Part shown: piece after piece, positions 2,449 to 38,818 of the stretch
Position numbering within the stretch: position 1 is the first letter of the stretch
Layout of the letters: the number at the start of each line of letters is the position of its first letter
NCBI GenBank assembly: GCA_029941905.1
Contig: JAPYTQ010000029.1
Span: forward strand, 1,659-65,658
Reading direction: 5' to 3'
From: Pseudomonadales bacterium
GTDB taxonomy: Bacteria; Pseudomonadota; Gammaproteobacteria; Pseudomonadales; Azotimanducaceae
DNA: 64,000 nucleotides
Program-made: the position numbers and the translations under genes
Notes under the pieces: generated by a model
Databases searched by the model: none
What the model was told of the DNA's origin: nothing
Seen by the model: only the letters and a program-made list of their open reading frames with translations

Positions 2449-5241
2449 GTGGTCTTGGCTGGTCTGGTGTTTTTGCCAGTTGCCAATGTCGCATCTGCTG
2501 CGGAGTCTCGACGTATTGAGGAAGTGACTGTAACCGCAGAGCGGCAAGAGTCTACTGTCCAGGATACTTCAATTTCAATTACTGCATTTACTGACCAGTT
2601 CCTTGATGATTTCGGCATTCGAAATCAGGAGGACCTGCAAAACTTCGTACCGGCGACGACTATCCAGCCCTACGATGCCACGATTCGAGGGGTTGGAAGA
2701 AATTTCCGGGCTCTCGGTGGCGACCCCGGGGTCGCAACCTATATGAACAACGTCTATTCCGAGGATCTGTTGACAGCCACGGCAGCGACGTTCTGGGATG
2801 TCCAGCGAATTGAGGTCCTGCGTGGCCCCCAGGGCACCCTGTATGGTCGTAACGCTGTCGGCGGCGCGATCAACATCCTCTACAAACAGCCGACCCATGG
2901 CACTGACTACGCTTTCAAGGTTATTGGCGGCAACTTCAACACCCAGGAATACTACGGCATGGTCAATGGCACCTTGATCGAAGATCAATTGTCTGCACGG
3001 GTAAATTTCAGTGTTCGTGACCGTGATGGTGTTATTGAAGAAATTGGCCCGGGCGATGACCTCGATGGTCTGGGCACCAAGAATGCGGCCATTCAGCTGA
3101 ACTGGACGCCGACCGATACCCTTGAGTTCAACATTCGCGCCAACAAGATGGAAATAGACCGGGACTTTGGTGGAGCCAATGGTGGTGGACTGGTTGTATT
3201 GAATGAGCAGGGTGGACCAACCAGAGAAACGAATTGGCTCGTTGGAGGCTATCGTGCAATCGATACAACAAATACAGCCATTGCGAACTACGACCAGAAC
3301 AACTGGTACGATAACAGTCAGCCAATTCTTAATTTCACTGATCCCGTCACTGGTGCAAATGTGCAGGCCCAGCACATTCGCGCAGGTGTCGATCCAGGTG
3401 CCTTTAACGGACGACAAAATGCCGCTGCGTCCCTGGACGGATTCAATACAACTGGTGCAGAAAGTGCTGCGGCATACAACGATTGCGTCTTCCCCAAGGA
3501 TATTCAGGGCGATGACATTTGTGGAGCAACCAATGGCTTGAACCGTGAGGAGTTTAATCAGCAGGGTGTGCAATTCAATGCATCGTGGGATTTGACCGAT
3601 ACCCTGCAGCTCAAGTACATCTATGGCTATAATAAATTGTCGTATGAACGAACCACTGATGATGACAATACCGCGAGCCAGTTTCACGATCGTCAGTTCT
3701 ATGTTAATCATGAAGCAGTTTACAGTTCTAATGAACTTCAGGCGTTCTACGAATTTGGTGACAATTTGTCGTTTACTTCTGGAATCTTCTTTTATGATGC
3801 CGTGATTGATCAACGCGGTGATTTCTATTCAACCCTCGGCGAAAGGCGGTTCATTGATCCGTATGTGGATAACACCGGTCTTGATGTCGCATTCTTTGGA
3901 ACGAGGCCTTTTGTGACGTTGCATACTGCGAAGGATAATTGTCTTGCGTCGGCTTCCTGCGAACGAAACAGTGCTTTTGGAGTGGCCACCTCTCGATGGT
4001 ACGGCGATGATGGGACACTCCCTGATCTGGATGTCCAGCATGGCATAAATAGCATTGGTAGTGATCTGCTTTACCACACTAAGACTGAAAGAGAGGCGTT
4101 TGCCGCCTATACCCAGGGTGTATGGGACATAAATGATAAATTTACACTGACTTTGGGTATCCGCTATGCCGAAGATGAGGTGACTGCTGAAGAGAATCTG
4201 TGGGCGTATCGTGAAACAGCGGCAGGCGCTATTGCGGGTACACCAGTAGGTAGTTTAGCAAATTACAATCGTCTAAACGGCGGACTTGTGCCTGATGCAA
4301 CCGGCTTGAATGGAGAGAACCCGACCCGGAAGGCAGTCAACGGTGGTATTCCTTTTGCATTCAGTCTCTATCGACCTTTCAAGCGAACGGATGAGAAAAC
4401 AACCGGTCGAATCAATCTGGATTGGAATGTCTCGGATAGCACCTTGATGTACCTCTCTGCGACTTCTGGTTATCGGTCGGGTGGTTACAACCTTATGTTC
4501 TTCAGCCAGACACCCACTTATGATCCAGAAGAGTTGCTTGCCTATGAATTGGGCTACAAAACACAGTTTTTTAACGACACAGTGCAACTGAATGGTTCTT
4601 TCTACTTATATGACTACGAGACTATTCATACCGTTGCAACGGAAGTGTCTGTCATAAGTGGTGCTCAGACAACATCTGTACTCGAAGCCCCTGGAGCAGA
4701 AATTTGGGGGATTGAGGCAGAGCTTCTGTGGCTGGCGACGGACAATTGGACTCTTGGCGGTAATTTTAGTTATACGCCAAGTGAATACACAGAAGATCTG
4801 TTTATCAAGGATACCTCGGACGTAAATACACCTGGGTCTTTGTTTCCCGGCTTTGAGGGGCAAACACAGAACATCAATGGCAACCAGATTTTGCAGGTGC
4901 CGGAGTTAAAATATACGGCCTGGGCCAGCTATGGTTATCCATTAAACAATGGTTCGCGTTTGGACTTCTTTGGTGTTTATACATGGATTGATGAAGTCTA
5001 CTACTCACCGTTCGAAAGTGAGACCGAAAAGGCAGACTCCTATGACCGAGCCGACCTGCGGGCCACATGGACATCACCCCAGGGTAACTGGATCGTATCC
5101 GGATTCGTTAACAATGTGTTTGACGATATCGGTGTGTTGCAGGTTTTGCGGGCTGGTGAGGCCGAGTTTTTCCGTCATACATCCGGAACCACTGTACCTC
5201 GCTTGTATGGTGTTGAACTGAGTTATACCCTGGGTAACTAA
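2449..5241 (+). CDS. TonB-dependent receptor
   Basis: Plug-domain motifs (EEVTVTA, RIEVLRGPQGTLYGRNAVGGAINI) and a C-terminal beta-barrel ending in an aromatic-rich tail. GTG start, with an uncertain short signal peptide. Confidence 0.9.
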   Translation: MVLAGLVFLPVANVASAAESRRIEEVTVTAERQESTVQDTSISITAFTDQFLDDFGIRNQEDLQNFVPATTIQPYDATIRGVGRNFRALGGDPGVATYMNNVYSEDLLTATAATFWDVQRIEVLRGPQGTLYGRNAVGGAINILYKQPTHGTDYAFKVIGGNFNTQEYYGMVNGTLIEDQLSARVNFSVRDRDGVIEEIGPGDDLDGLGTKNAAIQLNWTPTDTLEFNIRANKMEIDRDFGGANGGGLVVLNEQGGPTRETNWLVGGYRAIDTTNTAIANYDQNNWYDNSQPILNFTDPVTGANVQAQHIRAGVDPGAFNGRQNAAASLDGFNTTGAESAAAYNDCVFPKDIQGDDICGATNGLNREEFNQQGVQFNASWDLTDTLQLKYIYGYNKLSYERTTDDDNTASQFHDRQFYVNHEAVYSSNELQAFYEFGDNLSFTSGIFFYDAVIDQRGDFYSTLGERRFIDPYVDNTGLDVAFFGTRPFVTLHTAKDNCLASASCERNSAFGVATSRWYGDDGTLPDLDVQHGINSIGSDLLYHTKTEREAFAAYTQGVWDINDKFTLTLGIRYAEDEVTAEENLWAYRETAAGAIAGTPVGSLANYNRLNGGLVPDATGLNGENPTRKAVNGGIPFAFSLYRPFKRTDEKTTGRINLDWNVSDSTLMYLSATSGYRSGGYNLMFFSQTPTYDPEELLAYELGYKTQFFNDTVQLNGSFYLYDYETIHTVATEVSVISGAQTTSVLEAPGAEIWGIEAELLWLATDNWTLGGNFSYTPSEYTEDLFIKDTSDVNTPGSLFPGFEGQTQNINGNQILQVPELKYTAWASYGYPLNNGSRLDFFGVYTWIDEVYYSPFESETEKADSYDRADLRATWTSPQGNWIVSGFVNNVFDDIGVLQVLRAGEAEFFRHTSGTTVPRLYGVELSYTLGN

Positions 5242-6717: not shown

Positions 6718-6856
6718 GTTGAGTAGATAGTTTACCCTATGAAGTTGATCTTAACATTGGTACCAAAGCGCCCCCTTGTCTTTTCAGGTGAGTCGTTTTG
6801 TTGGATAATCCATTAACGCGTACGGGACCCGATAAATAGCTCAAGGAAATCAAAAA

Positions 6857-7198
6857 ATGACCAAACAAGTTGATTGGTATTACTTCCGAAATGGATGAAC
6901 CACCTGCACTAAAGCATCCAAGTTCTTGGAAGCAGGCAAAGTGGAAATTAAAGAAAAAACTCCTGCCAGTAAGAAGCTGCAGGCCGCTGATGCGAAGCTG
7001 ATGCTGAAACAGGCTTCCCGGCTCATTGCCATGAAAGGCAAAAAGGTGGCTGAATTTCAGGGTGCAAAAGCGGTATCGAAAGAAGCGGTGGAAGCGACCC
7101 TGGGACCCACGGGCAACATGAGAGCGCCGACCATCAAGGTTGGCAAGACAGTGCTGGTTGGGTTCAATGAAGAAATATTTACCGACGTTTTCGGTTAG
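6857..7198 (+). CDS. ArsC/Spx-family thioredoxin-fold protein, candidate selenoprotein (TGA 6896-6898 read as Sec)
   Basis: ATG 6857 is preceded by AAGGAA with an 8-nt spacer. The product is MTKQVDWYYFRNG-U-TTCTKASKFLEAG..., 113 aa. The U aligns with the first Cys of the N-terminal CxxC of ArsC-family proteins. The ORF track shows only the TTG-started remnant 6926..7198. Confidence 0.7.
6914..6933 (+). other. candidate bacterial SECIS hairpin
   Basis: GC-A-UCCAA-GUUC-UUGGA-A-GC, folded by hand. It starts 15 nt after the UGA and has an apical GU-containing tetraloop. Confidence 0.4.
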
Positions 7199-7518
7199 AA
7201 CAGTGCGTCGTTAAGTGCAGCAAGCCAGGCCAGCAGCAGAATAAGGACTATCAACAGGTTTATTCTGACGATTAACCCGTAGCGTTTTTTTTTCTGTAGA
7301 TCCTGGGCGTCGGTTTGATAAACCTTACACACTAAGGCATCGAGCATAATGACGACGAATGTTATTGGCACCAGTGCCGGGATCACTGCGCCCAGAATGA
7401 TGTCCCATCCTCTCGGATTCCAGCTGGGTTCAGTGAAAGGCAGAATCAACAGGAACATAAAAGCCAGACCATGGAGCATGTTCCTGAGCAACCCCATTGA
7501 TTTCCATTTTTCTAACAA
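7195..7518 (-). CDS. small integral membrane protein, unknown function
   Basis: Three hydrophobic segments. The start is uncertain (TTG 7518 or ATG 7497). Contains an A9 run (7285-7293) encoding KKK. Confidence 0.45.
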   Translation of the reverse strand: MLEKWKSMGLLRNMLHGLAFMFLLILPFTEPSWNPRGWDIILGAVIPALVPITFVVIMLDALVCKVYQTDAQDLQKKKRYGLIVRINLLIVLILLLAWLAALNDALF

Positions 7519-7561
7519 ACGACACCCTCACAACTTCCAGTCTCACAGAAAGATCTAACAC

Positions 7562-7592
7562 TTTACCTTATAGTTGCTTTAGTCTCTAAGCT
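7562..7592 (+). promoter_or_regulatory. possible MerR/CueR-type promoter of copA
   Basis: TTTACC - 19 nt - TAAGCT. An imperfect dyad, CTTATAG (7567-7573) and CTCTAAG (7584-7590), lies inside the over-long spacer. Confidence 0.3.
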
Positions 7593-7624
7593 CTCGTTCC
7601 TTGCTTTATTTAACGGATTCATGA

Positions 7625-10294
7625 GTGAAAAATTCCTTCACATTACTCATTGATGGCATGACCTGTAATCATTGTGAATCAACGGTGACCGGGGCGCTGG
7701 AACAACTCGGTGGGCAGGTCCGGGAAATAGATGCCGATACCGGAATTGCCCGTTTTGTATCAGATAGATGGATCCCGATTGATTCCGTAACGAATTCAGT
7801 TGAATCGGCCGGCTATTCCCTGAAAGCAGCATCGATAGCCGGTGAGCTCACCATCCCGGTGCAGGGAATGCAATTCGAAAAATGCCGGAAGCGGATTACT
7901 GGCGAGCTTCTGAAAATAGACGGCGTAGAGCGCGTTGTTGTACACCTGGACGCGAATCAGGTCATCGTATCAGGATCTGCAGATCTGTTGGCGATAATTG
8001 CGGGCATTAGGAATCAGGGATATGAAGTGGCCGAAACAGTTTCTGACGTCGAATTCCCCAAGCAGCCATCTGCAACTACGGTAGCATCGGCGAGTGAACA
8101 GGACTCGATTACCCCCACGAGGGAATCAGATTATTACCTGCAAATTCAAGGTATGTCCTGCGCCAGCTGCGTTTTAAGAGTGGAGAATACGCTTTCTGCT
8201 GTTCCCGGCGTCAGCGAAGCTTCAGTTAATTTTGCGGACGAAACTGCCTTTGTAAAAGGCGCCACCAGCCTGCAGGATCTGGTATCGGCAGTACAACGAT
8301 TAGGTTACGGCGCGGATCTGGTTGACCCGTCGGTTGATAAAGAACGGGTAATGATCGATCAGTTTAGAAAGGGAATTATTCGATCTGTTCTGGCTTTGGT
8401 TGGCGGCTCGCTACTCATGGCAGGGATGATGACCGGCTTGTTGCCGGGGATAGACAACAAAACCTTCTGGCTGATAACGGGCGTCGTGGTTTTAGGGTTG
8501 ATGGTATTTTCTGGTGGGCACTTTTATCGTAATGCGTGGCACTCAGCCAAATACTTCACCACGACCATGGACACGCTGATTGCGCTGGGAACAGGAACCG
8601 CCTGGTTGTATTCAATGCTGGTGATCATTGCGCCGATGCTTGTGCCTGAGGCCAGTCGGCACCTGTTTTTTGAAGCTGCGCTGTTTATTGTCGGTTTTAT
8701 CAACCTGGGTAAAAGCCTGGAACTCAATGCCCGGGGCAAAGCTTCCGGCGCCATTGAAAAACTGTTAGATTTGGCGCCTGATGAAGTCACCTTGCTGGTA
8801 AACGATGAGGAAACCCGGACTTCTCTACAACTCATCAAGGTAGGGGATTCGCTGCGGATTAAACCGGGTGACCGAATCCCCGTGGATGGCAGGATCATTG
8901 ATGGTTTCTCAAGTCTTGATGAATCGATGTTAAGTGGTGAACCCATTCCAGTTGATAAGCAGCCTGGCGACAGTGTGGCAGCCGGTACGATCAACCTGCA
9001 TGGCAGTTTTGTGATGCTCACCGAGCAGGTAGGTCGAGAAACCACACTGGCCAGAATGGTCAGCATGGTGAAACAAGCCCAGAACTCGAAACCCCCCATT
9101 GGCAAACTAACGGATTCAATTGCATCGGTTTTCGTCCCATTCGTGTTGCTGGTTGCGCTGGTGTGTATCGTTTACTGGGGCTTCCTTTCGTCTGACGGGG
9201 GCCTGACCCTCGTGATTGTTACCACCATGTCAGTATTGATTATTGCCTGCCCCTGCGCGCTCGGCCTGGCAATACCGATCTCCATTATGGTGGGCATCGG
9301 TCGGGGAGCGTCCCGGGGACTGTTGGTGCGTAACAGCGATGCGCTGCAAGCCGCGGCTGGCCTGGACACTATCGTACTGGACAAGACAGGCACATTGACT
9401 GAAGGAAAGCCGGAAGTCGTGGGTGTTTCGGTGTCACAGGGTTCTGATGAGAATCGGTTACTCGGCCTGGCTTACAGTCTGGAATCCTATTCCGAGCATC
9501 CACTGGCGAAGGCGGTTATCAATTACTGTGAACAACGCGGTATCAGTAAGCCAGTGGTCAGTGAATTCCGGATATCACCGGGTGGCGGCGTATCAGCCGA
9601 GGTCGATGGCGTGATGGTCCGGGCTGGGAACAGGCAATATCTAGTAGATTCCGGGATAGGATTTAGCCACCAGACCCAACCGGAAACAGGCACCGTCATT
9701 TATATTGCCGAAGGGTCGGAACTGCTGGGCAGCCTTGACCTGGATGACAAACTCAAGCCGGATTCCAAATCTGCCGTGGCTAAATTTCAGGCAAAGGGAA
9801 TCCATGTGGTTATTCTCTCCGGGGACAACGCGGCGAGCGTCAGCAAGGTTGCAGCACAACTCAATATTTCGGACTACCATGCCGGACTCACCCCTGAAGC
9901 CAAGTTGGAGAAGATCAGCGAAATGCAACGGGGTGGCCAAAAAGTGGCAATGGTGGGTGATGGCATCAATGATGCGCCCGCTCTGGGCATTGCAGATGTC
10001 GGTTTTGCGATGGGTGATGGCACCGATATCGCGATTGAAAGTGCGGATGTTGCCGTGGTTGGTAACCGATTGAGCCGGGTTGTCGAGGCGATCGAGATTT
10101 CCCGGCAAACCATGCGCAACATCTACCAGAATCTCTTTGGTGCCTTTGCCTACAATATTGTGTTGATTCCTGTGGCGGCCGGTGTCTTGTATCCCCTGTT
10201 GATCAGTCCGACATTTGCGGGCTTCGCCATGGCGATGTCGTCAGTGACGGTGGTGGCCAATGCTAACCGTTTGCGATTTGTCCGGCTGGACTAG
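7625..10294 (+). CDS. copA: copper-translocating P1B-type ATPase
   Basis: Three N-terminal HMA domains: GMTCNHC, a degenerate GMQFEKC, and GMSCASC. Also the CPC transmembrane motif, DKTGTLT, and the GDGINDAP hinge. Confidence 0.9.
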   Translation: MKNSFTLLIDGMTCNHCESTVTGALEQLGGQVREIDADTGIARFVSDRWIPIDSVTNSVESAGYSLKAASIAGELTIPVQGMQFEKCRKRITGELLKIDGVERVVVHLDANQVIVSGSADLLAIIAGIRNQGYEVAETVSDVEFPKQPSATTVASASEQDSITPTRESDYYLQIQGMSCASCVLRVENTLSAVPGVSEASVNFADETAFVKGATSLQDLVSAVQRLGYGADLVDPSVDKERVMIDQFRKGIIRSVLALVGGSLLMAGMMTGLLPGIDNKTFWLITGVVVLGLMVFSGGHFYRNAWHSAKYFTTTMDTLIALGTGTAWLYSMLVIIAPMLVPEASRHLFFEAALFIVGFINLGKSLELNARGKASGAIEKLLDLAPDEVTLLVNDEETRTSLQLIKVGDSLRIKPGDRIPVDGRIIDGFSSLDESMLSGEPIPVDKQPGDSVAAGTINLHGSFVMLTEQVGRETTLARMVSMVKQAQNSKPPIGKLTDSIASVFVPFVLLVALVCIVYWGFLSSDGGLTLVIVTTMSVLIIACPCALGLAIPISIMVGIGRGASRGLLVRNSDALQAAAGLDTIVLDKTGTLTEGKPEVVGVSVSQGSDENRLLGLAYSLESYSEHPLAKAVINYCEQRGISKPVVSEFRISPGGGVSAEVDGVMVRAGNRQYLVDSGIGFSHQTQPETGTVIYIAEGSELLGSLDLDDKLKPDSKSAVAKFQAKGIHVVILSGDNAASVSKVAAQLNISDYHAGLTPEAKLEKISEMQRGGQKVAMVGDGINDAPALGIADVGFAMGDGTDIAIESADVAVVGNRLSRVVEAIEISRQTMRNIYQNLFGAFAYNIVLIPVAAGVLYPLLISPTFAGFAMAMSSVTVVANANRLRFVRLD

Positions 10295-10417
10295 ATGTTT
10301 TTGGTGTTGCCGTAAAGTTGTATCTGGTTCATGATCTGCGGCGGCTAGTTAAAAAAACCGCTGTTGGTACAATTCCGAATCACCAAAACTGCAGTTTCAA
10401 GAAGCAAAGAGGCAATC

Positions 10418-11056
10418 ATGGTAGAGCCCGTTCATATTGAGGTATTTACAGACTACGTCTGACCCTGGTGTTATCTCAGTACCGTGAGTATTGAAAAGCT
10501 AAGGCAGGAAGAAAACGTTACGGTATCCTGGTCCTTTTTCCCCCTTCATCCGGAAACGCCTCCTGAAGGCAAGTCTCTGTCTGACCTGTTTAAAGGTCGT
10601 GAATCCCAGGTGCAGTCTTTCCAGAACCAGATCAAATCTCTGGCCGAGAAAGAAGGGTTGCCTTACGGTGATCGCTCGATGACTTACAACAGCAGATTGG
10701 CACAGGAACTGGGTAGCTGGGCTGATACGCAGGCAAATGGTGAGGCTTTACACGACGTACTGTATCGATCTTACTTTGTCGACAACGTGAATATCTCGGA
10801 TATCGATGTACTGGTCAGGCTGGCGGGGCAGGCAGGGTTGAAGGAGGAAGAGGCGCGTGACGTACTGCAAGATCGCCGGTTCAGCCAAAAAGTCGATGAA
10901 GATTGGCAAAGAGCCCGTGGTATGGGCCTCAGTGGTGTGCCTACGTTTGTGAGCTCAGAATTGTACGTCGTCGGTTGCCAGACTTATGATGTGCTGATGC
11001 GCTTCCTGAGCCATTTGCGTAAGCTCAAGTCCGAGGCAAAAACGAATTCTGCCTGA
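10418..11056 (+). CDS. DsbA/FrnE-family thiol:disulfide oxidoreductase, candidate selenoprotein (TGA 10460-10462 read as Sec)
   Basis: ATG 10418 is preceded by AAGAGG with a 5-nt spacer. The product is MVEPVHIEVFTDYV-U-PWCYLSTVSIEKL..., 212 aa. The family motif is CPWC, and the U sits at the first Cys. The ORF track shows only the GTG-started remnant 10484..11056. Confidence 0.75.
10476..10494 (+). other. candidate bacterial SECIS hairpin
   Basis: UCAGUA-CCGUGAG-UAUUGA, folded by hand: 6 bp including one G-U pair, with a 7-nt loop. It starts 13 nt after the UGA. Confidence 0.3.
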
Positions 11057-11101: not shown

Positions 11102-12043
11102 CTACTTTCGGCTCCGGACATAACCCGGGTTAACAATTCTGCTTCTTAACAGCACCTGCTGTTCGTCCTGTGTGAAAACAACTTTGTTACCGTCAAGTTC
11201 AATGCCTAACTGCGACAACAGCTGCGTATAACCACGGAAATTTCTATCTGACTCATAGTCTTTATACGCGGTGGCGAAAATGGAAGTCCCGGCGACCCGG
11301 TCAAAGGATTTCGCCAGCTTTATACCGTTCCAATGTTGATCAACTGAACGACAACACATCCTGAATTCGCTGATGACAGCATCAAGGGATTGTCCTGAGT
11401 TTTGCAGTGCTATATTCATTTCCAGAAAATAGAGCGCCCCAGACCAATAGACCCGCATAAAGGCCCTGTTCTGTCGCATATCCGCACTCAGTGTGCCGAG
11501 TTTGATATTACGGTTGCTGTCATTTGCGCCACGTCTGAACCCGTCAGCCAGTTTTTGCCACATCTGCTCGACGCTGAGAGTTCCGGCCCGGGCCATCAGA
11601 ATATTCTGGTAATAGCTGGCAAAGCCTTCTGAAATCCAGATATCCCCGGAACCAACATACGGTATATACAGGTGGCTGAATTCATGTACCGCAGTCCAAT
11701 CCTCTGTAAATCCTGCCAGGCTCACCTGTGGGTTAACGTAAAAGTTCACGCCTTCAGGTGACGAATGGCGTATTGTGTTGGCCCAGGGAACCGGCCCTGT
11801 GCCCCTGGCATGTCGTCGGATAATGATGTTCGTGTTTTGTCTCGGAAACCTGCCGTCGATAAGACTCGCTGAGTGAGCAGCGTGTAACAGCCAGTCAAGG
11901 ATTTTCTGTTGTTCCTGTTGGTTAAAGTCGGAGTGCCAGTTGATTGCGAACGTGCCACCAGGGATTGGCAGGTTGTCAGCGTAGGCCGGGATGCTGAGTG
12001 CGATTAGGATTAGTAGTAGAAAAGGAAATTTTGATCGGCCCAT
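11102..12043 (-). CDS. secreted zinc metallopeptidase-like protein (gluzincin HEXXH...E)
   Basis: Signal peptide. HEFSH, then W.SEGFASYY downstream, resembling M1/M61-type gluzincins. Confidence 0.6.
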   Translation of the reverse strand: MGRSKFPFLLLILIALSIPAYADNLPIPGGTFAINWHSDFNQQEQQKILDWLLHAAHSASLIDGRFPRQNTNIIIRRHARGTGPVPWANTIRHSSPEGVNFYVNPQVSLAGFTEDWTAVHEFSHLYIPYVGSGDIWISEGFASYYQNILMARAGTLSVEQMWQKLADGFRRGANDSNRNIKLGTLSADMRQNRAFMRVYWSGALYFLEMNIALQNSGQSLDAVISEFRMCCRSVDQHWNGIKLAKSFDRVAGTSIFATAYKDYESDRNFRGYTQLLSQLGIELDGNKVVFTQDEQQVLLRSRIVNPGYVRSRK

Positions 12044-12079
12044 AGTAGTGTTAGACCGGCTGATGCTATGAAAGATTCT

Positions 12080-12133
12080 CTGATCTATGGTATCTGATCT
12101 ACAGGGTCTGATCTATAGTACTGATCTGTAGTA
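12080..12133. repeat. four tandem 13-14 bp repeats CTGATCT(A/G)N6, each containing GATC
   Basis: Copies start at 12080, 12094, 12108 and 12121. They lie in the intergenic region directly upstream of the metallopeptidase gene. Confidence 0.9.
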
Positions 12134-12149
12134 GGAGGGGCGAATCGAT

Positions 12150-12821
12150 TCAGTCGCCAATGGCTTTCCAGGGTGACGTTTCGGGGTTGGCTGCCAGGAG
12201 GTTGCAGGCGGTAGCAATAACTTCCGAAACATCCTGTTCAGCTTGCTCGTAGATGACGCGATGATCGAATTTGCGGTGCTGAGAGTCAGGCTTTAACTCC
12301 GTTAGCCAATTATCCAGACCTGATGTGACCTCTGGGTTTGACTGGGAGAGGTGGTATCTGGCAGCATCGTATTGTTTGCGTAAATTTGTGTCTTTTATAT
12401 CGTCCAGTGTATCGAGAACGTCATAACTCTTGTCCGGTCCTTGTCTGGATTGTATGTACGACTTGGACGGAGAACAAAGGATTCGACTTGTTACAGACCG
12501 GTTGCTGGCGAGAACTCCTTGATAAGAGACCAGCAACAGTCTCAGGATGTTGGTTGCCTCGGCCTCGTTGACCTTGAACTGATCCTGGATTTTTTCGATA
12601 TTTGGTTGTGACTCTGACTTTAGCGCATCCAGGTACAATTGGTGCATCAGTGTCATGTAAGCGAAGTGATCAGGCAATTTCTCATCGTTGATGAAGTGCT
12701 CCCGATAGAGGTCTTCAGCTCCATTTTCGAGAACCTGCACAGGGTTTGCATTTCCGGGCTGGATGACCAGGGTAAGGGTAAGCACTGCTAACCAGGCTGT
12801 TACTTTTCTCTCATTCATCAT
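12150..12821 (-). CDS. hypothetical secreted protein
   Basis: Signal-peptide-like N-terminus (VTAWLAVLTLTLVIQPGNA). No recognised family. Confidence 0.5.
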   Translation of the reverse strand: MMNERKVTAWLAVLTLTLVIQPGNANPVQVLENGAEDLYREHFINDEKLPDHFAYMTLMHQLYLDALKSESQPNIEKIQDQFKVNEAEATNILRLLLVSYQGVLASNRSVTSRILCSPSKSYIQSRQGPDKSYDVLDTLDDIKDTNLRKQYDAARYHLSQSNPEVTSGLDNWLTELKPDSQHRKFDHRVIYEQAEQDVSEVIATACNLLAANPETSPWKAIGD

Positions 12822-12937
12822 GATTCTTAACGTCGAAACACTTGTGGACGTTAAAGATAAACAAATTGCGCGGTGAAATCAGAGAACCATGTCACACTTT
12901 TGGTAGGCTTATTTGCAGCTTGTTGGTTTTGTAACCG

Positions 12938-13708
12938 CTATCTGTTCGGGTTTAGCCGGGCCATTAAACCACCGATACCGCGAACCAGCCATCTGGGCTG
13001 ATGCTTGGCCCAGGTAATAGCAGCCTGATTGGTGACGCCGGGAATTCTGATTACTTCACGATTCATTAGCGCCGCGTAACCTTGTTGTGCAACATCTTCG
13101 GGGCTGGACATTAAGAAAGCCGGTACATTGGCGCTTTGAACATCTTCAATCATGTCCGTGCGGGTTATACCCGGACAAAGCGCTGTGACAAACACCCCGG
13201 TACCTTTTAGTTCTTCAGACAGGGATTCGGTTAGCGAAAGTACATAGGCCTTGCTGGCGGCATAAGCGGATAATGAGGGGACCGGTTGAAAGGAGGCCAC
13301 GGAGGCTACATTGAGTATTCTGCCGCTACCCCTGTTAATCATCCCTGGCAGAAAATTGCGCGTCAGCCTGGTCAGGCAAAAAATGTTGAGTGCGATCAGG
13401 TTCTCAATATCTGCCAGTGCCTGGTCATGAAATGAACCAGGGTAGGCAATTCCTGCATTGTTTACCAGCACATCAATGCGGGTATCGGAGAGTGAAGAGA
13501 CAAGGTGGTCAATGCCTTGATTCGTTGAGAGATCGCAGTCAATGACGTCGACATTGACCAATGACCTCAACTCGTCACCAATCTCTTCCAGCTTCGACAA
13601 TCTGCGTGCGGTGATCACAAGATCGAAGCCATTGGCCGCGAATTGACGTGCCAGAGCTTCGCCGATTCCCGACGAAGCACCCGTGATCAGCGCTGTGCCT
13701 TTAGTCAT
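12938..13708 (-). CDS. short-chain dehydrogenase/reductase (SDR)
   Basis: TGASSGIGEALA cofactor motif, NNAG, and a YAASK catalytic motif. Confidence 0.85.
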   Translation of the reverse strand: MTKGTALITGASSGIGEALARQFAANGFDLVITARRLSKLEEIGDELRSLVNVDVIDCDLSTNQGIDHLVSSLSDTRIDVLVNNAGIAYPGSFHDQALADIENLIALNIFCLTRLTRNFLPGMINRGSGRILNVASVASFQPVPSLSAYAASKAYVLSLTESLSEELKGTGVFVTALCPGITRTDMIEDVQSANVPAFLMSSPEDVAQQGYAALMNREVIRIPGVTNQAAITWAKHQPRWLVRGIGGLMARLNPNR

Positions 13709-13952
13709 CTGATTTCGTTTTCTCTTGCTCGTTGCCAGGTGTCCCGCCCATCATCTTTTGCAACCAGCTCTGATAAGCCATCATCGGTTGCATGGCGCTA
13801 TCCACGATGTCCTTGTATTGGGTCTGGTTGGAGTCTTTGAGAAATTGTTGCGCCCGATTGAGCATTTCCTGTTGCAGGCTCTCTACATTTGGAAGGCCTA
13901 TAAAACTACGCCGCTCTTCCGGGGTGATGTCCACATCGATTGTGATCTTCAT
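13701..13952 (-). CDS. small conserved protein often found beside phasin/PHA genes (DUF6489-like)
   Basis: MKITIDVDITPEERRSFIGLPNVESLQQEM... ATG 13952 has an AAGGA RBS. The gene overlaps the SDR start by 8 nt. The family name is recalled from memory, not searched. Confidence 0.5.
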   Translation of the reverse strand: MKITIDVDITPEERRSFIGLPNVESLQQEMLNRAQQFLKDSNQTQYKDIVDSAMQPMMAYQSWLQKMMGGTPGNEQEKTKSDD

Positions 13953-14048
13953 CAGTCGCCATCCTTTAGCCATAAACTGGGGAGTCTATTACAACCCAAA
14001 AACAGAAGGGCGCATAGCGCCCTTTAAAAATGCTGAATGACCGGGGGA

Positions 14049-14363
14049 TTAGCCATCAGTATTTGGTGCAAAAACTTGCTGAACTGCGTTAGTAGTATCT
14101 TCTACCGAGCTTTTCAAAATATCTGCCTGTACCTGGGTAGCATCCTTGATGCCGCTCCAGAGTGTCTCGGCATATTCACGTTGCAGTTCGATGAAACCCG
14201 CCACGTCTTTCACTTCAGGTAATTTGCTGGAGAAGTCACTGTTAAGTTCAAGATACTTGCGAAAATTTTCTTGCTGACTACTCATCAATGCCTGAAACAT
14301 ATTCTGGTTGATCTCGAAAAATGTCTTTCCCATTTCTGCTTGTGTCTGTAGATAACTCATCAT
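14049..14363 (-). CDS. phasin family protein
   Basis: About 100 aa, helical. The motif pattern F..NQ..F......EN..KYLELN......LPEVKDV..F..LQREY.ETLW is shared with the neighbouring paralog. Confidence 0.75.
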   Translation of the reverse strand: MMSYLQTQAEMGKTFFEINQNMFQALMSSQQENFRKYLELNSDFSSKLPEVKDVAGFIELQREYAETLWSGIKDATQVQADILKSSVEDTTNAVQQVFAPNTDG

Positions 14364-14386
14364 CTGGTCCTTTTTGTTAAGCCTAG

Positions 14387-14755
14387 TTACGCCGCTGCCT
14401 TTGCAGAGGTTTCTTCAGTTTTGGTTTCAGCTGGGGTCGCGGCTACTTCAGTTTCTTCTGCTGTCAAAGCCAGTTTCACTGCATCCCGGGTACCACTAAA
14501 CGCGCCTTTGACTATCTCTGTCTGTGCTTCAACGGCACCTCTGGCATTGTTCCAAAGTGTTTCGTTGTATTCTTTCTGTAAGCCCAGGAAATCAGAAATG
14601 CTGGTGATTTCCGGAAGTCGCTTGGCGAATTCGCGATTGGTCTCGAAATACTTGCTGATGTTCTCACGCTGGAGTTCGGCAATCTCTTTGATGGTGCTGG
14701 TGTTAATCTCGTAAAGTGACTTTCCGAGGTTGGTCTGTTTTTCAATAATGTTCAT
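14387..14755 (-). CDS. phasin family protein (tandem paralog, Ala/Glu/Thr-rich tail)
   Basis: Same motif pattern: LYEIN......ELQRENISKYFETN.EFAKRLPEITSISDFLGLQKEYNETLW. Confidence 0.75.
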   Translation of the reverse strand: MNIIEKQTNLGKSLYEINTSTIKEIAELQRENISKYFETNREFAKRLPEITSISDFLGLQKEYNETLWNNARGAVEAQTEIVKGAFSGTRDAVKLALTAEETEVAATPAETKTEETSAKAAA

Positions 14756-14784
14756 GTCGTTGTGTTTCCTGAGTTGTTCATATG

Positions 14785-14817
14785 TTGCGCTGCAGCATTA
14801 TATATTGCACTGCAACA
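14785..14817. promoter_or_regulatory. direct repeat TTGC(G/A)CTGCA(G/A)CA x2 upstream of the phasin gene (possible PhaR operator)
   Basis: TTGCGCTGCAGCA (14785-14797) and TTGCACTGCAACA (14805-14817), separated by TTATATA. Confidence 0.35.
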
Positions 14818-14922
14818 AATTCAAGCGGTTTTTCAGAATACTCGCTTATTTTTAGTGATTAGTCCGATTCAATGGCCCGGGGTCCTTCCTAAAATTTCTC
14901 ATAAGCCATTGATAAATTTAGA

Positions 14923-16431
14923 TTATGCAACCTTTGTGGGCACTTCGGCTACATCTTCAGAATCTTGATCCCCAGATAGCTCATTTTGCGTCCTGGACTG
15001 CAATTCCTGCCGTTCGATGATGTCAGTTACATTATCCGAAAGAACTAACTGCTTCAGTTCCATGAATGCGGCAACAATATCATCACGCAGAATGCTTGCG
15101 TCCGGCAGTGCTTTTTTGCATGCAGTAATACTAAAGTACAAGTCATCACAATAGCTTTGAACGGTGATGTTGAGACCCAGACCATGCGCGGGAATAGAGA
15201 CTGGATAGTGAGATAACATCTCTGCACCATTGGAGTAGAGTGTTTCACGGGGTCCGGGGACGTTCGAAATGACCAGATTGATGGGCATTGGCAGAACATC
15301 GCTCAAGCTAAGTTGCTCGTTTAGCACGGATGTCGCGGTGATCGTTGCGGGTAAACCGGGCAGTGCGACGTTAGGCTCGTATCCCTCGGCCAGTTCCGCG
15401 GTAACTTCCTTTGCTGTGTTAGCTGAGGCTTTGATTGCCAGCAACCTTGTACCAGGGTCTGCCAGATGCGTCGCCAGATTGACTTGCATCATGGTGACAT
15501 TGTTCCCCATTCCCTTATCACCGGGTTTCCTGAGGGATACGGGCGATCCCGCAATAAGTGGAGTGTCGGTCAATACGCCGAGTCGTAGCAGATAAGTTCG
15601 GAGCCCACCGGCGCAAACTGACATGAAAACGTCATTCACTTTGCAATCTAGTGACTTACCGATCTGCTTTGTCTGAGACAGTGACAGCTTACCGCAGGCA
15701 TATTCGCGGGTGGCACCGATTGAGCGGCTAAAGGAGGTGGTGGGTGCAACGTCGTTCAACGCACCAAAAGATTTTGATGGATCGATTGCTCTCTGGTTAA
15801 CCCGGACCATACTTTCCATGGATCCGAGATAGCGACTGACACTGTCGATCTGGAAGCTGACAAGATTTTCCCATGCCATGGTGAACAAATTGATTGAACT
15901 TTTCTGTTCACCGTCGAGCAGGTCCGCAGGAACCTGGTGAACCGGGTGATCCGGTGAGTTGTCCATCAACAGCATGGTGGCCGCCTGTCCAGCCATGCCG
16001 TCCAGGCAAGCGTGGTGGGCCTGGTTGTAGTAGGCGATATTTCCGTCTTCGAGACCTGTTATCACGTAAACAGCCCACAGCGGCTTGCTTCGATCCATGG
16101 GTGCGCTGTGCAATTGCGCGACTTTCTGTTCGAGCTGGCGCATGCTGCCCGGCGCATCAAGGGGAACCTCAATGATGTGGTTTTCGATATTGAATTCAGT
16201 ATCTGTGATCCACACCGGGTGGTCCAGATTGAACGGTGTGAACTTTATTTTCCGTGTCAGGTATGGGACAAGATGGATTCGGCCGTTCAGAAATGTTTTC
16301 AGGCCGTTGCAGAACTCACTCGCCGATGTGTTCTGCGGCAGGGCAAATTGTTGCAGGGACGCGACGTGATTGAACACCGTGTCTGTTTCTGAATAAAGGA
16401 AGTTTGCATCCAGGGCACCAAGTTTTTCCAT
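14923..16431 (-). CDS. wax ester synthase / diacylglycerol acyltransferase (WS/DGAT)
   Basis: HHACLDG active-site motif (HHxxxDG), an N-terminal LDANFLY motif, and about 500 aa. ATG 16431 is preferred (GGAG upstream); the ORF extends to 16452. Confidence 0.85.
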   Translation of the reverse strand: MEKLGALDANFLYSETDTVFNHVASLQQFALPQNTSASEFCNGLKTFLNGRIHLVPYLTRKIKFTPFNLDHPVWITDTEFNIENHIIEVPLDAPGSMRQLEQKVAQLHSAPMDRSKPLWAVYVITGLEDGNIAYYNQAHHACLDGMAGQAATMLLMDNSPDHPVHQVPADLLDGEQKSSINLFTMAWENLVSFQIDSVSRYLGSMESMVRVNQRAIDPSKSFGALNDVAPTTSFSRSIGATREYACGKLSLSQTKQIGKSLDCKVNDVFMSVCAGGLRTYLLRLGVLTDTPLIAGSPVSLRKPGDKGMGNNVTMMQVNLATHLADPGTRLLAIKASANTAKEVTAELAEGYEPNVALPGLPATITATSVLNEQLSLSDVLPMPINLVISNVPGPRETLYSNGAEMLSHYPVSIPAHGLGLNITVQSYCDDLYFSITACKKALPDASILRDDIVAAFMELKQLVLSDNVTDIIERQELQSRTQNELSGDQDSEDVAEVPTKVA

Positions 16432-16806
16432 GTTCTTGTCTCCAGTTTTCAATAGTCGATTTCCACATACGCACTAACGCCTGCACTGAACAGCGCCACG
16501 CTATCGATGTAATGCTATAAAAATAAGATGGGTATCCGTGTCGCGAGGTTCCAGACGCTTTTTGGGGTGACTGCGGGGACCTGCTGTGGACAACGAGCGC
16601 GGATTATAAACGGCTCTTGGTTTGAGTCAACCACTTTTTGTGCATCGCGCAATAAAGTTCAATTTTGTGAAGCTGTTAACAAATCTGCGACCTGGAGCAG
16701 CGGTTAAATGCTTGATTCCATTGTGTAAGTCGGACAAACTCAATCACGTTTTTCACTGCAACATAGCGCACTCTCTCAGTATGTGTAAGTACGTAAAATA
16801 TGAGGT

Positions 16807-17607
16807 ATGGATTTGTACGAAGAACTTGATGTAGAAAGTTATCGCGTTGAAACTCCATCGATTTTCAATTCGTTAACAGAAATTCCAAGGACACTCCTGG
16901 AAATTGGCACGCTTTCGATTAGCTTTCCAGTGCTGTCCAGCTTACCCAAGGGAGACAAACACCCCGTCATGCTTGTCCCAGGGTTTATGGCAGGTGATGA
17001 GTCAACTGTGGTGTTGCGGCGCTATCTTTCGTGTATGGGATACAAACCTTCTGGTTGGGGTTTGGGAAGAAATACCGGGCATCCAGAAATCATAGAGCGA
17101 ACCTTGATTGAAAAATTTCATCAACTATTTGAGGAACATCAACAGAAAGTTAGCCTGATTGGTCAAAGTTTAGGTGGTATATTTGCGAGAGAGCTGGGCC
17201 GTTTATTTCCTGATAAGGTCCGGCAGGTGATTACCCTCGGTAGCCCTTTTTCGATGGCCAATGGCGGGGGGTCGAATCTCCTGGTGCAGAAGTTGTTTGA
17301 ACAACAGTCAAGGATGAGCGTTGAAATGATGCGTGAACGTCTGGAGACAGATCAAAGCCCACCGATTCCCCTGACCGCGGTTTATAGCCGTGGTGATGGC
17401 GTTGTACACTGGCGCGGTTGTATGGAAACTGAACTGGACCACCAGACCCAGAATATTGAGGTATTCGGAAGCCACTGCGGTATGGGTTTTAATCCCGCTG
17501 TTTATTACATTATTGCAGATAGGCTTGCCCAGCCGGAGAATAGATGGAGACTGTTTCAGTCGCGGGTCCCTGGTGTGGTGCACCCGATGAATGAAGACGA
17601 GAATTAA
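16807..17607 (+). CDS. alpha/beta-hydrolase (lipase/esterase-like)
   Basis: GQSLGG nucleophile elbow (GxSxG) and PVMLVPGF before it. Confidence 0.7.
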   Translation: MDLYEELDVESYRVETPSIFNSLTEIPRTLLEIGTLSISFPVLSSLPKGDKHPVMLVPGFMAGDESTVVLRRYLSCMGYKPSGWGLGRNTGHPEIIERTLIEKFHQLFEEHQQKVSLIGQSLGGIFARELGRLFPDKVRQVITLGSPFSMANGGGSNLLVQKLFEQQSRMSVEMMRERLETDQSPPIPLTAVYSRGDGVVHWRGCMETELDHQTQNIEVFGSHCGMGFNPAVYYIIADRLAQPENRWRLFQSRVPGVVHPMNEDEN

Positions 17608-17624
17608 GAGCCTGGGAATTCACC

Positions 17625-18068
17625 ATGCGCGAGTTCAAAAAGTATCCCAATCGTCGGCTCTATGACATTCAGGAGAGCCAGTACGTCACGGTGGAAGATA
17701 TCCGCAAGATCGTCCTCGCAGGTGAGACGATTCTGGTGATAGATTCCAAATCAGAAAAGGACCTGACCCGTTCGGTGCTGTTGCAGATTATTTCAGAGCA
17801 GGAAGGTGAAGGCCATGAGCCAATATTGACGAATCGTGTTCTGGAACAACTGGTCCGCTTTTATGGGGCACCGATGCAAAGTGTAGTGAGTCGATATATC
17901 GAACAGAGCATTACAACTTTTTTGGATCACCAGGAAAAATATCGATCCAGGATGCAGGATCTGGCAGGTGCGGAGCCTATGGCGTTGATGCGTAAGGCAT
18001 TGGAACAGAATATGGAATTCTGGAATCGTCTCGCGACAAATACTCAGGACAGATCCAGAGAAGACTAG
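17625..18068 (+). CDS. phaR: polyhydroxyalkanoate synthesis repressor PhaR
   Basis: The N-terminus KKYPNRRLYDIQESQYVTVEDIRKIV and LLQIISEQE are hallmark PhaR motifs. Confidence 0.85.
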   Translation: MREFKKYPNRRLYDIQESQYVTVEDIRKIVLAGETILVIDSKSEKDLTRSVLLQIISEQEGEGHEPILTNRVLEQLVRFYGAPMQSVVSRYIEQSITTFLDHQEKYRSRMQDLAGAEPMALMRKALEQNMEFWNRLATNTQDRSRED

Positions 18069-30113: not shown

Positions 30114-30279
30114 ATTTCCAGATCGTTCCTGTAAGAATAATGCTAATGGTGTAAAGCCCATTAAGGGATAGAGTGAGCGAGTGTCCTCACAATAGCAAGG
30201 GTTCTTCGTAAGCATATATGTGTATGAAACCGTAAATTTCAAGGGGCTTTACTACCCCTCGCGGTATCAACTGTCTATA

Positions 30280-31650
30280 ATGCGGCTCCCAAAAATTGGT
30301 TCCAAGATCGACGTGCAGAAAGTTTTCATCAAAACCCACGGCTGCCAGATGAATGAATATGATTCATCGAGAATGCTGGATCTTCTTAAGGCAGTTCAAG
30401 GCTATGAGCAGACGGATTGCGAAGCAGAAGCAGACCTGCTGCTGCTTAATACCTGCTCCATACGTGAGAAGGCACAGGAGAGGGTTTTTCACCAGTTAGG
30501 GCGCTGGCGCAAGCTGAAGGAAGAAAATCCAAATCTGAAAATTGGCGTGGGTGGTTGTGTGGCTAGTCAGGAAGGTGTCGCGATTAGTGTACGGGCTCCC
30601 TATGTTGATGTGATCTTTGGTCCACAGACATTGCACCGATTGCCCGAGTTGATTGTCAATGCAACGAACTCTCAATCGGCGGTTGTAGATATTAGTTTTC
30701 CGGAGATCGAGAAGTTTGACAACCTGCCTGAGCCTTCCGTTTCTGGCCCCAGTGCGTTTGTTTCGATTATGGAAGGCTGCAGCAAATACTGTTCCTTCTG
30801 CGTTGTGCCCTATACTCGGGGTGAAGAGGTCAGTCGACCCATGAACGATGTGCTGCGGGAAATCCTGAACCTGGCCGAAAAGGGCGTAAGGGAGGTAAAC
30901 CTGCTGGGGCAAAATGTAAATGCCTATCGTGGCGATGCAGGGGATGGTTCGACGGTAGATCTGGCGTACCTGATTAGCATCATCGCAGATATTGAAGGTA
31001 TCGACCGTATTCGATACACCACTTCTCATCCAGTCGAATTTACTGACAGCCTGATTGATATTTATGCGGATGTGCCAGAACTGGTGAGTCACGTACATTT
31101 ACCTGTTCAAAGTGGCTCCGACAGGATTCTCGCCGGGATGAAGCGAGGCCATACAGTACTTGAGTACAAGTCAAAAATTCGGCGCCTCAAGAAGATTCGA
31201 CCTGATATCAGCATGTCGTCAGATTTTATTATCGGATTTCCGGGTGAGACTAACGATGACTTCGAGGCGACAATGAATTTGATAGTGGATATTGGTTTCG
31301 ACCACTCATTCAGTTTTATATATAGTGCCCGACCTGGGACTCCCGCTGCAGATTTGCCTGATGATACCTCGATGGAAACCAAGAAAGAGAGGCTCGGAAT
31401 TCTACAGGATCGAATAAGCACCCAGGCGATGCAAATTAGCCGGAAAATGGTCGGTGGCATCCAGACAGTCCTGGTCACCGGGGTATCGAAGAAAGATCCT
31501 GGTCAGTTGCAAGCCAGAACTGAAAACAATCGGGTCGTCAACTTTCGAGCGACAGATCCCGGGCTCATTGGACAGTTTGTGATTATTGAAATTACCGAAG
31601 CATTGCCAAATTCCCTGCGTGGAAGTTTCACCGGATTGGTCAGTTCGTAG
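30280..31650 (+). CDS. miaB: tRNA-2-methylthio-N6-dimethylallyladenosine synthase
   Basis: [13 protein letters not shown], radical-SAM [11 protein letters not shown], and a TRAM C-terminus. The start could also be GTG 30313. Confidence 0.9.
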
Positions 31651-31773
31651 TGGCCTGGTCAAATTGAACAAAAAAACTCCAATTCTGCGCTTTCAAGTCC
31701 CTATTTGTAGGTATATCCTAGCGTCAATCCTTACATTACCAGCGGTCACCGAGACAAGCTCCTGATACAGCCA

Positions 31774-32757
31774 TTGGACGCGCACATTCAACCTCACCAG
31801 ATAAAACTGGAACCTAACGAAAGTGGTTTACTCGCCACCCTGTGCGGGCCTTATGATGCCCACTTACGTCAAATTGAAAAGCGTCTGGGCATAACCATTA
31901 AGAACCGCGGTAATGATTTCCAGATAGTAGGTGACCAAAAGCTGATTCATGCTGCAGGTGAGTTACTCAATCATCTGTATAGAGAAGTGAATAACGGCAT
32001 AAACCTCACAGCTGAGATAGTGCACTTGTTTTTACAGGAGTCGGGTATTGATTCACTGATGAATAATGAAGCTGACGGGTCTGACGACCTTGTCTCGACC
32101 CGGAAAAAGAGCGTCAAACCTCGCGGCATGAATCAGATCAAGTATGTGCGGGCTATTCGAAGTAACGATATTAACTTCGGTATAGGTCCCGCAGGGACAG
32201 GGAAAACCTATCTGGCCGTTGCCTGTGCAGTTGAAGCACTTGAACAGGAAAGAACCAGAAGGATTCTATTGGTTCGACCGGCAGTCGAGGCAGGTGAAAA
32301 ATTAGGGTTTCTGCCGGGAGATCTAAGCCAGAAAATTGACCCCTACCTCAGGCCGCTTTACGACGCATTGTATGAAATGATGGGATTTGAGCAGGTTGAA
32401 AGGCTGATGGAAAAAAATGTCATAGAGGTGGCACCCCTGGCATTCATGAGAGGTCGTACATTGAACGATGCATTTGTCATACTTGATGAGAGCCAGAATA
32501 CAACTGTCGAACAAATGAAGATGTTCCTTACCCGGGTTGGCTTTGGCTCCACAGTTGTCGTCACAGGTGATATCACGCAGATCGATTTACCCAGCAAGAT
32601 GAAATCCGGTTTGAGACATGTATTGCAGGTGCTGAATGATGTCAACGGAATCTCGTTTACACACTTCAACGCTAAAGATGTTGTCAGGCACCCTCTGGTG
32701 CAAAGAATCGTTGAAGCTTATGAGAAACACGAAACAGAAACCGGAAATGGCGACTAA
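31774..32757 (+). CDS. ybeZ: PhoH-like ATPase
   Basis: Walker A GPAGTGKTYLA and FLPGDL..K.DPYLRPLYDAL. TTG start is uncertain. Confidence 0.9.
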   Translation: MDAHIQPHQIKLEPNESGLLATLCGPYDAHLRQIEKRLGITIKNRGNDFQIVGDQKLIHAAGELLNHLYREVNNGINLTAEIVHLFLQESGIDSLMNNEADGSDDLVSTRKKSVKPRGMNQIKYVRAIRSNDINFGIGPAGTGKTYLAVACAVEALEQERTRRILLVRPAVEAGEKLGFLPGDLSQKIDPYLRPLYDALYEMMGFEQVERLMEKNVIEVAPLAFMRGRTLNDAFVILDESQNTTVEQMKMFLTRVGFGSTVVVTGDITQIDLPSKMKSGLRHVLQVLNDVNGISFTHFNAKDVVRHPLVQRIVEAYEKHETETGNGD

Positions 32758-33235
32758 CTGTTCGAACGAGATCGAAATCTCCCGGGGCTGCCATCAAAAT
32801 CCGGCAACCATGCCTGAAGATGAATTAATCAAAGCCTGGTCCAGTGAGGCTTTGATGGGGAGCGGGATTGGCGGTGCAGAAGTTTCAGTCTCCATTAGAA
32901 TTGTTTCAAGTGAGGAAATGACAAGTCTGAACTCAGAATTTCGAAGTATTAAAGCCCCGACAAATGTGCTTTCTTTTCCCATGGACACAGAGTTAGATGG
33001 GGGTCGGCGATTGTTGGGTGATATCGCGATTTGTGCGGACGTGGTTATTGCCGAGGCCCGGGAGCAAGGAAAGTCTAACCATGCTCACTTTGCCCATATG
33101 CTGGTCCATGGCATTCTCCACCTCAGGGGCTTTGATCACTTGGAAGACGATCAGGCACTTAAAATGGAACAGATAGAGGTTGAGATTTTGCGTACAATGG
33201 GATTCCCGAATCCATATAGGTATCCGACAGCATGA
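32747..33235 (+). CDS. ybeY: rRNA maturation endoribonuclease YbeY
   Basis: HGILHLRGFDH zinc motif. The ATG overlaps the phoH-like stop. Confidence 0.9.
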   Translation: MATNCSNEIEISRGCHQNPATMPEDELIKAWSSEALMGSGIGGAEVSVSIRIVSSEEMTSLNSEFRSIKAPTNVLSFPMDTELDGGRRLLGDIAICADVVIAEAREQGKSNHAHFAHMLVHGILHLRGFDHLEDDQALKMEQIEVEILRTMGFPNPYRYPTA

Positions 33236-33254
33236 GCTGCGAAGAGGACCTGCA

Positions 33255-34097: not shown

Positions 34098-34106
34098 GTC
34101 CCTGTC

Positions 34107-35645: not shown

Positions 35646-35764
35646 CGGAAATACCTGCTTAATCAGAGGTTCCATAGGTGAATTGGATATCACCTGACAG
35701 GATGATCGGGTAGAATCCGGTTTCTTTTTTTCTGGTTCGAGCAACAAGAAACGACGAAACGATC

Positions 35765-38799: not shown

Positions 38800-38818
38800 A
38801 GGAAAAGTACTGAAGTAG

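Follow-up and report, generated by a model that had tools for sequence, protein, structure and literature searches.

We analysed a 64,000-nucleotide stretch of contig JAPYTQ010000029.1 from a Pseudomonadales bacterium (hereafter the window), in which two candidate selenoprotein genes flank copA, the gene for a copper-exporting ATPase. The region of interest, positions 6857–11056, is bounded exactly by the ATG of the first selenoprotein gene and the final base of the stop codon of the second. The first gene (6857–7198, plus strand) encodes a 113-residue protein of the ArsC/Spx family, recognized from its translation and from the NCBIfam model NF041106, with selenocysteine (Sec, U) in the motif U14-T-T-C17. 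Its in-frame TGA, codon 14, occupies 6896–6898 (plus strand) and is followed at 6914–6933 (plus strand) by a hairpin resembling a selenocysteine insertion sequence (SECIS). An open reading frame (ORF) for a predicted membrane protein of 107 residues lies on the minus strand at 7195–7518, convergent with the ArsC-like gene and divergent from copA, which spans 7625–10294 on the plus strand and encodes an 889-residue Cu(I)-exporting P1B-1 ATPase. The last gene (10418–11056, plus strand) specifies a FrnE/DsbA-like selenoprotein of 212 residues with the motif U15-P-W-C18, identified by translation, PF01323 and a match to FrnE; its TGA, codon 15, lies at 10460–10462 and its SECIS-like hairpin at 10476–10494, both on the plus strand. 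Coordinates and ORFs confirm the layout given in a preliminary description of this DNA, according to which only the small membrane protein gene and copA separate the two Sec genes, 3.2 kb apart. From that layout it had proposed a functional selenol/copper redox module.

For comparison, we assembled about 160 related loci, including the 80 best ArsC-like loci from genomes and the 80 best DsbA-like loci from metagenomes. The ArsC-like loci were drawn from bacterial and archaeal collections holding one genome per species, with up to 10 kb fetched on each side, and were mostly from metagenome-assembled genomes (MAGs) of marine Pseudomonadales, OM182, Azotimanducaceae and Rariloculaceae. At least 481 species carry the ArsC-like gene. 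ArsC-like loci were counted as informative for synteny if they carried at least 4 kb of downstream sequence (66/80), and DsbA-like loci if they carried at least 3 kb upstream (35/80).

The ArsC-like gene reads MTKQVDWYYFRNG-TGA-TTCTKASKFLEA...DVFG, with a single in-frame TGA that sets Sec in the motif G-U-T-T-C. With U replaced by C, its product scored 112.7 bits against NF041106, 'ArsC family (seleno)protein' (cutoff 85), over residues 5–108 of 113; a Pfam search of the protein returned nothing at E < 0.01, and the NCBIfam selenoprotein model was needed to place it. All 80 of the best genome loci kept the TGA, with coding sequence conserved on both sides: WYY(F/Y)R.G before it and T.C...(A/V)..F(L/M) after it. 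In the same column, the Cys-form homologues P0023 (GCPAC) and P0028 (GCTAC) carry Cys. A structure model made from P0023, a natural Cys homologue 54% identical to the window's protein, had a predicted local distance difference test (pLDDT) score of 93.5; it placed the CxxC where strand 1 meets helix 1, with the helix starting at residue 15, and its best PDB matches were Spx, YffB and ArsC-family proteins (TM-score ~0.5). Downstream of the TGA, GCAUCCAA-GUUC-UUGGAAGC forms a hairpin whose loop G lies 23 nt after the UGA (single-sequence fold, −14.9 kcal/mol, z = −2.2). Across 79 sequences, 86.9% of the cells in this stem were paired, against at most 48% when the partners were slid, and compensatory changes replaced A-U by G-C in nine sequences and C-G by U-A in two. 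No signal peptide was found in the sequence, and the protein is predicted to be cytoplasmic.

The DsbA-like gene likewise has a single in-frame TGA and translates as MVEPVHIEVFTDYV-TGA-PWCYLST.... It matched the DSBA model PF01323 at 2.5e-31 (109 bits, cutoff 25.6), and among solved structures it is closest to Deinococcus FrnE, a cytoplasmic protein (PDB 5cnw, 2.8e-24). Of the 80 best loci from marine and soil metagenomes, at least 76 kept the TGA, in the context (F/Y)(V/I)-TGA-PWC(Y/F)L, and one had TGC; many Cys-form homologues are CPWC proteins, with which UPWC aligns. The hairpin, UCAGUAC-CGUGA-GUAUUGA, has a stem that is almost invariant in nucleotides over 72 marine and soil sequences, synonymous sites included, with a compensatory change of U-A to C-G in two of them. 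The nucleotide conservation of this 19-nt stem-loop across the distance from marine to soil sequences is striking. Sec forms of the FrnE-like protein with a near-identical hairpin are also common in metagenomes of soil and freshwater type (L089, L099, L100, L104, L119 and other soil-type JGI contigs). This protein, too, has no signal peptide in its sequence and is probably cytoplasmic. The C-terminal CxxxxC regeneration motif of Deinococcus radiodurans FrnE is absent from the 212-residue sequence; some other FrnE proteins are without it, so the motif is not universal in the subfamily (PMC8945050).

At both genes, then, a hairpin comes after the TGA and carries GU in its apical loop, ~23 nt further on. 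The standard features of a bacterial selenoprotein gene were found for both, and both TGAs are well supported as Sec codons; from these features we infer that Sec itself is inserted. If the TGAs were instead ordinary stops, the genes would be truncated, started downstream or pseudogenes, with no Sec inserted. Such a reading would suit public gene callers, which annotate only fragments downstream of the TGAs, and the window itself, in which no selA, selB, selD or tRNA-Sec was found (Rfam and ARAGORN scans included; no RNA family matched). However, it leaves unexplained why all homologues conserve, at protein level, the 13–14 codons before each TGA, why the redox partner Cys always lies three residues past the TGA and why the TGA column aligns with the Cys of Cys forms. 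It is also at odds with the conserved hairpins, with their compensatory changes, after each TGA and with the match above cutoff to a curated selenoprotein hidden Markov model (HMM), and we regard it as extremely improbable.

Protein searches returned homologues of both genes as N-terminally truncated ORFs starting just after the TGA, as full-length ORFs in which W, G or R stands in place of Sec, because the TGA had been translated under another genetic code, and as true Cys forms. Mis-annotated database entries occur systematically in both families (P0002–P0011, P0122–P0124, P0145, P0147, P0152, P0172 and P0213).

The statement in the preliminary description that these are UxxC selenoprotein candidates was upheld by TGA conservation, Cys forms, hairpins and the matches to NF041106 and PF01323. 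Equally, both do have thiol-disulfide oxidoreductase folds: ArsC/Spx according to NF041106 and the P0023 model, and FrnE/DsbA-like according to PF01323 and 5cnw. That they are the only two recoded genes in 64 kb holds for the UxxC/CxxU motif class, for which the window contained no other TGA-interrupted ORF free of overlap with a normal gene. When 2.07 Mb of fetched loci were scanned, crudely, for conservation across loci, no Sec families other than these two emerged; Sec genes are therefore not dense in these genomes. 'DsbA-like' and 'ArsC-like' selenoproteins have been found computationally in bacterial genomes (PMC1794560), and in the Global Ocean Sampling (GOS) marine metagenome the UxxC families 'DsbA 1' and 'Arsenate reductase 2' comprised 63 Sec and 704 Cys sequences and 42 Sec and 238 Cys sequences, respectively (PMC2398784). 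As both families appear in selenoproteome surveys (PMC2398784, PMC1794560, PMC13188914), the two genes are new members of already catalogued selenoprotein families in an ordinary chromosomal neighbourhood.

The gene between them proved to be a genuine Cu(I) P1B-1 ATPase, as had been described. CopA scored 584 bits against TIGR01511, matched PF00403 (three times), PF00122 and PF00702, and carries the signature motifs CPC in transmembrane helix 4 (TM4), YNx4P in TM5, MxxSS in TM6 and DKTGT, together with three HMA domains. The middle HMA domain (residues ~77–140) has no CxxC (GMQFEKC), whereas the L001 and L019 orthologues keep CMNC and CQKC. Relatives' CopA proteins have three, two or one HMA domain and range from 889 to 728 residues. 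In core identity, the CopA of L063/L069 is divergent (50%, versus 64–68%).

Upstream of copA, at 7562–7592 on the plus strand, lies a candidate promoter of MerR/CueR type, TTTACC and TAAGCT separated by a 19-nt spacer, with the imperfect dyad CTTATAG-N10-CTCTAAG inside the element. The dyad was seen with a mismatch-tolerant script; an exact-seed inverted-repeat search of intergenic regions gave nothing useful. A 19-nt spacer with an internal dyad is a hallmark of MerR/CueR-type promoters. CTTTAC[C/G]TT, 19 nt and a TA-rich hexamer also precede copA in L019 (~11763–11795), L063 (~11793–11825), L069 and L161 (~3474–3506), and the element is kept even where a different gene directly precedes copA. 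From this pattern, copA is probably driven by its own MerR/CueR-type promoter. Neither cueR nor copZ was found in the 64-kb window, and the regulator of copA must therefore be encoded elsewhere.

The preliminary description had named conserved ArsC-like(U)-copA-DsbA-like(U) synteny in related genomes as a check on the proposed module, and no such conservation was found beyond close relatives. Within 10 kb of the ArsC-like gene, copA was present in only 4/66 informative loci (L001, L019, L063 and L069) and absent in 62/66. A relaxed copA search of the ArsC-like loci added only an unrelated P-type ATPase in L060; this non-copper enzyme (L060 8519–10453) is 24–27% identical to CopA and lies ~1.5 kb past the ArsC-like gene, a placement that is probably coincidental. 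The DsbA-like gene came within 10 kb of the ArsC-like gene in four loci (L019, L063, L067 and L069). Seen from the other side, copA lay 5' of the DsbA-like gene in 2/35 informative loci (L081 and L082, at 79% identity the two closest of those 35) and was absent in 33/35; in L083, the nearest DsbA(U) homologue of all (81% identity), the upstream position is taken by a divergent gene of 227 residues and not by copA. The full ArsC(U)-copA-DsbA(U) order was seen in 3/80 ArsC-like loci (L019, L063 and L069), all related marine gammaproteobacterial MAGs. The commonest other context of the ArsC-like gene, found in 23 loci, has an M16-type peptidase on one side and a ~560-residue lipoprotein on the other. 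Neighbour clustering identified no universal partner gene for either Sec gene and recovered only lineage-specific blocks (M16 peptidase with lipoprotein, SDR genes, an NHL-repeat protein, CoA-transferases).

Among the relatives that share the window's wider synteny (a TonB-dependent receptor, a 2-oxoglutarate (2OG) oxygenase and an SDR), all partial combinations occur. The window has ArsC(U), the small membrane gene on the minus strand, CopA and DsbA(U); L019, L063 and L069 have the same order with a DUF1295-like membrane gene added before copA. L067 has ArsC(U), the small membrane gene, the DUF1295-like gene and DsbA(U), with no copA, and L081 and L161–L164 have CopA and DsbA(U), with no ArsC-like gene. 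In GCA_964548025 (L001 and L166), ArsC(U) and CopA are followed by six unrelated genes over 8 kb before DsbA(U) is reached. In GCA_019090615 (L002 and L165), ArsC(U) and DsbA(U) are on separate contigs and neither is beside copA, DsbA(U) sitting between a sulfatase and a TPS-domain gene. The pattern is that expected of inherited local gene order eroding by insertions and deletions, and not of a selected module. The co-location goes back to one ancestral arrangement, within a single clade, and thus represents one event and not repeated evidence.

The small membrane gene adjoins the ArsC-like gene in L002, L019, L063, L067 and L069. Its hydrophobic product matched no Pfam or NCBIfam model and had only four homologues, all of them close and none annotated, among 5.8 billion proteins. 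The stop codons of this gene (minus strand) and the ArsC-like gene (plus strand) overlap by 4 nt at 7195–7198, leaving no room for a terminator between them. The same five loci have, running divergently from the small membrane gene, a DUF1295-like membrane protein gene of ~290 residues (steroid reductase/ICMT-like, with SRHPNYFGE); the window lacks it and has copA in its position.

The small membrane gene, on the opposite strand, stands between the ArsC-like gene and copA, so that the ArsC-like gene forms its own transcription unit and cannot be co-transcribed with copA. A sigma-70-like promoter candidate 5' of the ArsC-like gene (6781–6809, plus strand; TTTTCA, 17 nt, GATAAT) came from a consensus scan only and is weak: it was not conserved across the 80 homologous upstream regions, and the scan around the region found 3 such sites versus 4.1 expected. 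No shared regulatory motif was found upstream of the 80 ArsC-like genes.

Taken together, we consider it likely that the locus is a local, changeable gene order holding three separate pieces, not one system. The ArsC/Spx-fold selenoprotein would be a stand-alone cytoplasmic protein, widespread in marine Pseudomonadales-type gammaproteobacteria with no fixed gene partner, in which the U14-x-x-C17 pair at the start of helix 1 would cycle between selenolate/thiol and selenenylsulfide. CopA is a chromosomal Cu(I) efflux ATPase, probably on its own MerR/CueR-type promoter. By analogy with Deinococcus FrnE, the FrnE-type DsbA-like selenoprotein (U15-P-W-C18), also presumably cytoplasmic, would most likely serve as a general disulfide reductase/isomerase; FrnE-type proteins have been described as cytoplasmic disulfide reductases or isomerases with a CP(W/F)C site (PMC8945050). 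Both UGAs would be decoded as Sec with the help of the hairpins starting 13–15 nt downstream, and the present order would have arisen by descent, with local insertions and deletions, within one clade. The single selenol/copper redox module of the preliminary description, uniting ArsC-like(U), CopA and DsbA-like(U), would draw on the closeness of the three genes in the window, L019, L063 and L069 and on the fact that both flanking genes encode UxxC redox proteins. We nevertheless judge it highly improbable, given how rarely the full order was seen among the ArsC-like loci, that each component has been lost independently in near relatives, that an opposite-strand gene splits the ArsC-like gene from copA and that no common regulatory motif was found. 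The analogy once drawn with DsbC and ScsC in copper tolerance does not carry over, as those proteins are periplasmic and neither protein here has a signal peptide. Literature searches found no paper tying either family to copA.

A narrower alternative is a clade-limited, two-gene copper-stress unit, in which the FrnE-like selenoprotein gene would be co-transcribed with copA from the CueR-type promoter and the ArsC-like gene would be unrelated. Under copper excess, the FrnE-like protein would reduce disulfides or clear Cu(I)-thiolate adducts formed in the cytoplasm. Several observations favour this alternative and weigh against three independent pieces. The two genes share a strand with a gap of 123 nt in the window and ~40–60 nt in L019, L063 and L069, and in the window no terminator was predicted between them, the region folding no better than shuffled sequence; read-through from copA, and with it co-transcription under copper control, is thus possible. 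At least four lineages (the window, L019, L063/L069 and L081) have copA next to DsbA(U), and the pairing persists even with the divergent CopA of L063/L069. Independent acquisition of copA at the same site there, which may have occurred, would argue for selection. There is a precedent in metal stress, as cadmium induces the FrnE of D. radiodurans and the corresponding mutant is sensitive to both cadmium and diamide (PMC8945050). On the other side, the adjacency is missing in most informative loci of the same Sec family and even in the near relatives L083, L067, L165 and L166. In L067, DsbA(U) instead stands ~40 nt behind the DUF1295-like gene, and the DsbA(U) gene appears to follow whatever gene stands upstream. 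A TGnTACAAT-like extended −10 element ~35 nt before the DsbA-like ATG would, in addition, permit its independent transcription. Overall, we regard the two-gene unit as unlikely. What survives of the copper proposal is that, in a narrow clade, copA and the FrnE-like selenoprotein gene may be transcribed together, to which we give only a small chance. Its most specific form is rather improbable: a cytoplasmic FrnE-type selenoprotein on the CueR-controlled copA transcript of a marine OM182-like gammaproteobacterial clade, which, relying on Sec, would reduce disulfides or repair Cu(I)-thiolates under copper stress. Three separate pieces in a changeable gene order thus remains our preferred reading.

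A ~7-kb block after the DsbA-like gene (11102–18068) encodes an M61-like peptidase, a 223-residue protein, an SDR, two phasins, a WS/DGAT wax-ester synthase, an alpha/beta hydrolase and a PhaR-type regulator. This storage-lipid/polyhydroxyalkanoate (PHA) block is variably present, being absent in L161–L164, where an HAD hydrolase directly follows DsbA(U). A typical core-genome cluster at 30220–39826 holds miaB, phoH, ybeY (in the gap at 32757–33180), corC, lnt, leuS, lptE and holA; after it come cobS/cobT-like genes, an Opp-type ABC importer and two further TonB-dependent receptors. This region is chromosomal backbone and not an island, with a flat GC content of 0.46–0.53. An in-frame TGA candidate at 32618–33235 was rejected, the ORF being presumably the ybeY expected in the miaB-phoH-ybeY-corC-lnt cluster, starting after the TGA.

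These results are of practical use for annotation: in public data, both genes are routinely called wrongly, either truncated or with W, G or R for U, and the conserved hairpins would aid their correct calling. The results also remove an argument from guilt by association, in that neither uncharacterized selenoprotein family gains a copper function from its gene context. Should copA and DsbA(U) nonetheless be co-expressed, one widespread marine and soil selenoprotein family would acquire a testable physiological role, and a FrnE-type selenoprotein on the copA transcript would for the first time tie Sec use functionally to copper homeostasis.

Set against known systems, the two selenoproteins resemble ScsABCD and DsbC/DsbG-type proteins only as thioredoxin-fold proteins with a CxxC-type active site. 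Those systems reside in the periplasm or the membrane and have a genetic link to copper tolerance, whereas the two proteins here have no conserved linkage to copper genes. The copA gene corresponds to the CopA/CueR system of gammaproteobacteria in its P1B-1 motifs, HMA domains and 19-nt-spacer promoter with dyad, and differs in having no cueR or copZ in the window and a middle HMA domain without CxxC. The ArsC-like protein agrees with NF041106 (GOS 'Arsenate reductase 2', 'arsenate reductase-like protein, UxxC') in its full-length HMM match, N-terminal UxxC, length of ~113 residues, post-UGA hairpin and marine distribution, and nothing sets it apart from that family. The relationship to true arsenate reductases and Spx is only distant (TIGR01617, 31 bits versus a cutoff of 75; fold TM ~0.5). 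The DsbA-like protein shares with D. radiodurans FrnE (PDB 5cnw) an active site that aligns with CP(W/F)C and the lack of a signal peptide; it differs in that Sec replaces the first Cys and the regenerating CxxxxC tail is missing. Its selenoprotein counterpart is DsbA-like form 1 (PF01323 UxxC, GOS 'DsbA 1'), with which it has in common the DSBA domain, the UxxC motif, and a TGA and hairpin kept across marine and soil metagenomes.

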